Below, piece after piece: positions 7,228-7,845 of a stretch of DNA of 64,000 nucleotides. The position numbers were made by a program, and so were the translations under genes. Under the pieces are notes generated by a model, which was given only the letters and a program-made list of their open reading frames with translations, was not told where the DNA came from and did not search any database. The stretch spans positions 275,241 through 339,240 of the forward strand of contig CAXXCM010000001.1 of the NCBI GenBank assembly GCA_963662845.2, in the 5' to 3' direction. Within the stretch, counting starts at the first letter, position 1; the number at the start of each line of letters is the position of its first letter. The stretch comes from Longimicrobiales bacterium. Its GTDB lineage: Bacteria > Gemmatimonadota > Gemmatimonadetes > Longimicrobiales > Gaopeijiaceae.

Positions 7228-7845
7228 ATGAAACGCCCCCTGAGATCGCTGGTTCACATCTGCTTCGTGTCTCTGTCGCTGCTCGGACTCCACGCGACTT
7301 CGGCCCCCGCCCAGACCCTTGGACCCGCGGACGGCCACGATCTGCCTCCCACCGACATCGAACGCGTCGGGGTCGGCGACGAGGCTCCGCTCTTCGCCCT
7401 TGATTCGTTCGACAGGGGAGTGGTGGAGCTCGCGAGCTTCCGCGGCGAGGCCAACGTGGTGCTCGTCTTCTACCGCGGGCACTGGTGACCGTACTGCGCC
7501 AGTCAGCTCGTGGAGCTGAGAGCCCTCCTTCCCGACGAACTCCAGGACGACACCGAGATCGTCACCGTTTCCGTGGACGACCGCGACGGCATGCAGCTCA
7601 TGATCGACCGGGTGGCCGCCAATGACGGCGTGGAGCCCGATTTCGTGATGCTCTCCGACCCGGATCACAGCGTGATCGACCGCTACGGCCTCTTCAACGC
7701 CGACGCGCCCCCCAACCGGCCGCTCCCGCACCCGGCCACCTACGTGATCGACAAGGACGGGATCGTCCGGTACAGCTTCGTGGAGGTGGACTACCGGGTG
7801 CGCCCCACCAACGAGGACATCCTGGAGGTGCTGAGGGGGCTGTAG
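7228..7845 (+). CDS. Secreted AhpC/TSA (redoxin) family protein, probable selenoprotein (TGA 7486-7488 read as Sec; UxxC active site)
   Basis: Track ORFs 7228..7488 and 7510..7845 are in the same frame and are interrupted only by TGA 7486-7488. Read-through gives ...NVVLVFYRGHW-U-PYCASQLVEL..., which matches the FYxxxW-C-PxC motif of the family. The N-terminus is a signal peptide, MKRPLRSLVHICFVSLSLLGLHATSAPAQ. Confidence 0.7.
7503..7519 (+). promoter_or_regulatory. SECIS-like hairpin downstream of the in-frame TGA
   Basis: Perfect 7-bp stem tcagctc/gagctga around a gtg apical loop. The stem starts 15 nt after the TGA. The spacing and the G/U-containing loop fit bacterial SECIS elements. Confidence 0.5.

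Follow-up and report, generated by a model that had tools for sequence, protein, structure and literature searches.

An in-frame UGA very probably encodes selenocysteine in a Prx-like redox protein of the Gemmatimonadota

A single reading frame at 7228-7845 of the window (the whole stretch of DNA that was analysed, 64,000 nucleotides from a Longimicrobiales bacterium) is interrupted only by TGA 7486-7488, and this codon very probably specifies selenocysteine (Sec). The probability that the frame is a genuine selenoprotein gene is put at about 0.9-0.95, and that of the reading as a whole -- one gene for an exported redox protein with a peroxiredoxin fold, its UGA recoded as Sec by way of a hairpin a few codons downstream -- at about 0.92. 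The two open reading frames listed for this region, 7228..7488 and 7510..7845, share one frame with the TGA as the only break, as was already pointed out in the original prediction, and translation of 7228-7845 bears this out. With the TGA taken as U, the 205-residue product reads VVLVFYRGHW-U-PYCASQLVELRALLPDE around the codon, giving an active-site motif of FYRGHW-U-PYC in which the redox pair is U87-P-Y-C90. The features are as follows.

7228-7845, plus strand: complete selenoprotein reading frame, 205 residues and a TAG stop; AhpC/TSA (PF00578)/Redoxin fold
7228-7311, plus strand: signal-peptide-like N-terminus (MKRPLR, a hydrophobic core, then APA with the putative cut before Q), as read from the sequence
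7486-7488, plus strand: UGA, read as selenocysteine U87, which opens the UxxC redox motif; Cys in homologues, TGA in Sec forms
7495-7497, plus strand: TGC codon of Cys90, second residue of UxxC; opposite the catalytic Cys of AhpE, putative resolving residue
7503-7519, plus strand: SECIS element with a 7-bp stem UCAGCUC/GAGCUGA and a 3-nt apical loop GUG (7510-7512), from the bSECIS model and comparative data
7843-7845, plus strand: true stop codon, TAG
7876-7934, plus strand: terminator-like hairpins followed by T runs, 3 sites against 0.6 expected in shuffles; weak, consensus matches only

Over residues 49-182 the read-through product matches the Pfam AhpC-TSA family (2e-26; 92.8 bits, cut-off 26), and Redoxin is matched as well, in keeping with the AhpC/TSA-redoxin identity that had been proposed for it; orthologues can be aligned with it from residue 1 to residue 205. 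The column occupied by the TGA holds Cys in all 117 full-length homologues from the databases, as was expected if the codon stands for an active-site residue of this kind. Three further rows lack the Cys, and these are fragments of 112-116 aa starting MELRALLPD, i.e. truncated gene calls of Sec orthologues. Among the Gemmatimonadota, TGA stands in the same column in each of the 80 distinct Sec-form sequences, at identities down to 47%. An orthologue with exactly one in-frame TGA is carried by 24 of 24 same-genus genomes (65-83% identity), the TGA column being identical in every genus locus examined. A sample of 251 Gemmatimonadota genomes, evenly drawn, yielded 59 orthologues at a threshold of E <= 1e-40, from several families and again down to 47% identity; TGA is found in 58 of them and TGC in one. 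The organisms that carry the gene are uncultured Gemmatimonadota, mostly labelled Longimicrobiales. Sec forms are thus 58 of the 59 orthologues in this sample despite the predominance of Cys forms in the databases, where the latter (the 117 found) are over-represented because the Sec forms are annotated as fragments. In public protein sets the Sec forms are present only as unnamed pieces of 82-116 residues, which is what the original prediction had anticipated of automated annotation, and the read-through protein scores below the cut-off of every NCBIfam model. Genome-wide reassignment of TGA was considered and rejected: it is the main stop codon elsewhere in the genome, where it terminates 1443 of 2350 long open frames (61%), including that of the neighbouring asnB, and any recoding is therefore site-specific.

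Downstream of the TGA, from its 15th nucleotide on, a perfect 7-bp hairpin with loop gtg had been singled out as a candidate bacterial SECIS. It is present exactly as described at 7503-7519 (tcagctc-gtg-gagctga), the stem being separated from the TGA by 14 nt and the loop by 21 nt. [quoted passage not shown] Taken as a single sequence at 68% GC, the fold of 7486-7545 is no better than that of shuffles (z = +1.08), and no Rfam family matches 7150-7950 at E <= 1. Because the fold of the lone sequence gives no signal above shuffles, it is the comparative tests that have been relied on. In a set of 65 different 48-nt sequences, 97.6% of the stem cells are paired, versus 30-47% in slid registers, and 3 of the 7 stem pairs have changed on both sides, a level of covariation equalled in 0 of 500 shuffles. 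The dS across the hairpin codons is 0.098, about nine-fold lower than the ~0.9 seen in the flanks. Codons +3 to +11 are nearly frozen synonymously in the genus orthologues (CTC 20/20, CTG 20/20, the rare AGA 18/18, AGT 11/12), while Leu, Val and Arg codons outside that segment use 3-5 synonyms.

The individual changes can be followed. In one sequence (L168) CAG>CAA and CTG>TTG, both synonymous, convert a G:C pair into A:U; in two others (L047 and L156) CTC>TTC is accompanied by a synonymous GAG>GAA, so that C:G becomes U:A; and the outer stem pair alternates among U:A, G:C and U:G from clade to clade. The stem columns are mostly invariant, the compensatory evidence coming from few lineages. 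The loop begins with G in 80 of 80 Sec forms (as GUG, GGC, GGG, GGU or GGA) versus none of the 8 close Cys forms. Part of the stem pairing is due to conservation of the peptide Q-L-x-E-L, which, written as CAGCTN-NNN-GAGCTG, is self-complementary by nature. In the close Cys forms the stem is never complete, with 4-6 of its 7 pairs formed; the Leu codons of these forms vary, and their loops start with A or C. Two Cys forms nested among the Sec forms (L179 and L180) have TGC in the key column and ACG or ACA as the loop, and in both a synonymous CTG>CTC breaks a pair that is invariant in all 65 Sec sequences. From these alignments the SECIS looks like a pre-existing coding palindrome that has been sharpened and that decays once Cys replaces Sec.

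Any such recoding depends on selA, selB, selC and selD, and all of these are present in the genome. The tRNA-Sec scores 78 bits (cut-off 47) and is called by ARAGORN as tRNA-SeC with anticodon UCA; SelA scores 435 bits; SelB is full-length at 631 aa, with 325.5 bits against TIGR00475 (cut-off 242); and SelD, at 384 bits, has a UGA at its own GAG-U-ACK active site, with a strong hairpin next to it. This hairpin in the SelD gene (L011; G000:C8:60986-61912, minus strand) has a folding energy of -28.9 kcal/mol and follows immediately past the UGA; its lower stem, AGCUC...GAGCU, matches the stem of the redoxin SECIS exactly, a likeness that may reflect a preference of SelB in this lineage or may be coincidence. 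That the Sec machinery came from a contaminant was considered and rejected: the contigs with the machinery and the gene are all at 67-68% GC, and five closed single-contig relatives carry the gene and tRNA-Sec on the same chromosome. SelB was found in 58 of 58 TGA-form genomes of the phylum sample, the Cys-form genome (G172) not being among the SelB-positives; these genomes are interrelated, so the co-occurrence is supportive evidence and not statistical proof. SelB lies above the curated cut-off in 201 of the 251 sampled genomes, and Sec decoding looks to be very common in the Gemmatimonadota. The inserted residue is not identifiable from the sequence alone, and the UGA might in principle be read through with a standard amino acid (Trp, Cys or Arg, by way of a near-cognate tRNA), the hairpin then being a generic read-through stimulator. 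The column is, however, strictly Cys in the Cys forms, the hairpin has the geometry and G-first loop of a SelB-type SECIS, the Sec machinery is complete, with SelD using UGA at its own canonical Sec/Cys site, and the co-occurrence with SelB is perfect; insertion of a standard residue is thus very unlikely.

Both sides of the TGA are under purifying selection. In 20 genus orthologues dN/dS is 0.17 over the 40 codons before it and 0.20 over codons +12 to +45, with dS of ~0.9, and the TGC codon of Cys90 is unchanged in all 20; selection of this kind after the TGA means that the downstream part is translated, and in the same frame. A real stop or a split at this place was looked for in close homologues, and what they have is the same TGA, kept, with both halves selected for. 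Were the TGA a true stop, the products would be a short N-terminal peptide and perhaps a separate 111-aa C-terminal protein from GTG 7510, which could serve as a start codon, and gene callers do give 82-116 aa products of this sort for the orthologues. Such a division would, however, fall inside the redox motif, separating W86 from P88, and the C-terminal part would lack the signal peptide and the first beta strands; moreover, GTG 7510 is the SECIS loop itself and has become GGN in 45 of 80 orthologues, with loss of the start codon. With the one frame maintained by selection in ~80 lineages and the TGA form confined to SelB-positive genomes, termination at this codon is scarcely credible. A pseudogene, or a sequencing or assembly error, would be the usual inference from a single in-frame stop in one assembly, here a MAG-like one with 6.3% estimated contamination, but the chance of either is negligible, because the same TGA is shared by ~80 distinct sequences from independent assemblies, closed chromosomes included, with dN/dS ~0.2 on both sides of it and every contig at 67-68% GC.

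For the read-through product, AF2 gave a confident model from 121 input sequences (pLDDT 83.5, pTM 0.80). In it, U87 follows a strand (residues 76-81) and stands at the start of helix 88-100; residues 1-30 are modelled at low confidence. Among solved structures, the peroxiredoxins AhpE of M. tuberculosis and Bcp1 of Sulfolobus are nearest in fold, with target-normalised TM scores of ~0.84. When aligned to AhpE, FYRGHWUPYC lies opposite FFPLAFTGIC, which sets U87 against the catalytic Thr of PxxxTxxC and C90 against the peroxidatic Cys, while the Pro of that motif corresponds to R83 and the catalytic Arg to Pro169, beside an invariant His168. The TGA had been thought to sit where the peroxidatic or attacking Cys belongs; it does encode the first, attacking residue of a CxxC-type pair, but the peroxidatic position in this alignment is that of C90. 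Of the canonical peroxiredoxin signature, PxxxTxxC plus a conserved Arg, only the Cys (C90) is retained, and peroxidase activity is uncertain because the Thr and Arg are absent. Judged by alignment and model, the protein is a peroxiredoxin scaffold with a thioredoxin-style UxxC pair and not a canonical peroxiredoxin. Its N-terminus suggests export via the Sec translocon, with a predicted cut by signal peptidase I after Ala28; the consensus of the homologues has a hydrophobic N-terminus ending A-Q, followed by a conserved LGPxDGxDLxPTDIERV.

Selenoproteins with PF00578 and a UxxC or UxxU motif have been listed as Prx-like thiol:disulfide oxidoreductases; the family goes back to a prediction made by Kryukov and Gladyshev in 2004, is the 'Prx-like 1' of the GOS survey and counts 225 Sec forms and 2,740 Cys homologues in the literature, and it is predicted only, no biochemical function being known (PMC2398784, PMC9312934, PMC13188914). 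It is defined by domain plus motif (PMC9312934). By that working definition, PF00578 with UxxC, the present protein is a member, and it is best regarded as a new member or subfamily of these catalogued selenoproteins. Like them, it combines a PF00578 domain with Sec at the start of UxxC, has numerous Cys homologues and has a bacterial SECIS directly downstream; it differs in that the present subfamily, with FYRGHW-U-PYC, bears a putative signal peptide and dominates in the Gemmatimonadota, a phylum unmentioned in the selenoproteome reviews and surveys PMC2398784, PMC9312934 and PMC13188914.

Other proteins with related folds can be distinguished from it. PrxU of Eubacterium acidaminophilum (NCBIfam NF040737, TxxU) also places a Sec within the active-site segment of a peroxiredoxin fold, but there the Sec occupies the peroxidatic position (PxxxTxxU), whereas in the present protein it occupies the Thr position three residues upstream and the peroxidatic residue is Cys; the PrxU model is reached at only 31.7 bits against a cut-off of 270. 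The 1-Cys peroxiredoxin AhpE of M. tuberculosis (PDB 1xxu, 4xih) has the same fold (Foldseek E 2e-12, target-normalised TM 0.84, ~30% identity) but keeps both catalytic residues, Thr and Arg, and has only one Cys, where the present protein has Sec87 for the Thr, Pro169 for the Arg and a CxxC-type pair. SelL and SelL-related proteins (Prx-like2, UxxU, NF040769) likewise combine a Prx-like scaffold with an xx-spaced, thioredoxin-style Sec redox pair, but have two Sec residues where the present protein has one; NF040769 gives 37.6 bits against a cut-off of 120.

The immediate flanks of the gene are without informative neighbours. The asnB gene lies divergently upstream (5480-7204) and is found in this arrangement at 39 of 59 loci, which amounts to genus-level synteny; the spacer at 7846-8057 contains G-run/T-run hairpins, unusual for a 68% GC genome. 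The Cys forms are more telling: 5 of the 7 genes are divergently adjoined by a DsbD gene (DsbD_N, DsbD_TM and a thioredoxin domain; ~750 aa), and because DsbD adjoins most of them, the orthologous family is likely to be a periplasmic client of DsbD. The Cys-form orthologues concerned (loci L171, L174, L176 and L178 among them) include that of Gemmatimonas phototrophica, and L178 has a second AhpC/TSA-Redoxin gene downstream. The link is limited to the Cys forms, since no DsbD adjoins the Sec-form loci: tblastn with the N-terminus of G. phototrophica DsbD gave no match at any Sec-form locus or in the organism's own genome, which by this search has no full-length DsbD, and in query searches neither CcdA nor TlpA was adjacent to any Sec-form locus. 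A CcdA-like DsbD_TM gene (L172:1471-2208, minus strand), followed by a gene for a TlpA/ResA-like redoxin (L172:879-1463, minus strand), lies 7.6 kb from the selenoprotein gene and just beyond the window; the locus, L172, is G000:C1:272765-276394 and overlaps window positions 1-1154. From its domains this pair is a predicted periplasmic reducing pathway. The CcdA gene is at ~7 kb in four of five closed genus genomes and at 30 kb in the fifth, and the ~7 kb linkage, which may be plain genus-level synteny, has been judged uninformative. With the clients of DsbD, ScsB and CcdA, such as TlpA, ResA and CcmG, the present family would share an export signal, a CxxC-type motif and, for most Cys-form orthologues, a DsbD gene alongside; unlike TlpA and ResA, its fold is closer to that of the peroxiredoxins, and its Sec forms are not adjacent to such transporters.

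Taken together, a working scheme for the putatively exported selenoprotein can be proposed. The mRNA hairpin at 7503-7519 would recruit SelB with Sec-tRNA(Sec), so that UGA 7486-7488 is recoded as selenocysteine and the product of 7228-7845, a redox protein with a peroxiredoxin fold, acquires a thioredoxin-type U87-P-Y-C90 active site at the start of helix 88-100. In the periplasm, the selenolate of U87 could be the exposed nucleophile that attacks an oxidised substrate -- a disulfide, a sulfenate or a peroxide -- after which C90 would resolve the adduct to give an intramolecular selenenylsulfide, and a membrane electron pathway of the DsbD/CcdA type would re-reduce the protein. Of this scheme, the data establish the signature of recoding, the fold, the motif and the machinery; the export, the substrate and the reductant are inferred.

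In the best trees two Cys groups, a large clade and a small trio, are nested among Sec forms, with some of which they share a strongly supported clade. Neither monophyly of the Sec forms (p = 0.11) nor that of the Cys forms (p = 0.23) is rejected by AU tests, and for that reason no direction of exchange between Sec and Cys is claimed from the tree. For the small trio only, the evidence favours conversion from Sec to Cys, because the SECIS appears to be decaying there. The genome has a second Prx-like gene outside the window (G000:C6:273245-273763, plus strand), with an in-frame TGA in FFRGRW-U-PYC; it is 38% identical to the present one, is without a signal peptide, lies beside a tRNA gene cluster and has one-TGA counterparts in at least 10 genus relatives. 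More distant homologues (L053 and L056), at 29-35% identity, occur in Acidobacteriota (Terriglobia/Candidatus Sulfotelmatobacter MAGs), with TGA in FFRGHW-U-PYC and, at a similar distance, a different downstream hairpin, GAGC-UGGAG-GCUC.

A more far-reaching reading, which we regard as speculative and on balance improbable, would make the protein a periplasmic selenol peroxidase of a new type, with GPx-like chemistry on a Prx scaffold, C90 as the resolving residue and recycling by DsbD/CcdA; Sec would be ancestral in the Gemmatimonadota and replaced by Cys upon loss of SelB, and the naturally self-complementary codons for Q-L-x-E-L would have been recruited as the SECIS. What suggests a selenol peroxidase is the position of Sec87 at the catalytic Thr site, one turn before the peroxidatic Cys.

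The value of the finding lies chiefly in the correction of annotation, one gene having been cut in two by gene callers, and it leaves the understanding of how selenoproteins work unchanged. The family also offers a clean example of a SECIS element built upon codons that had been semi-palindromic beforehand.
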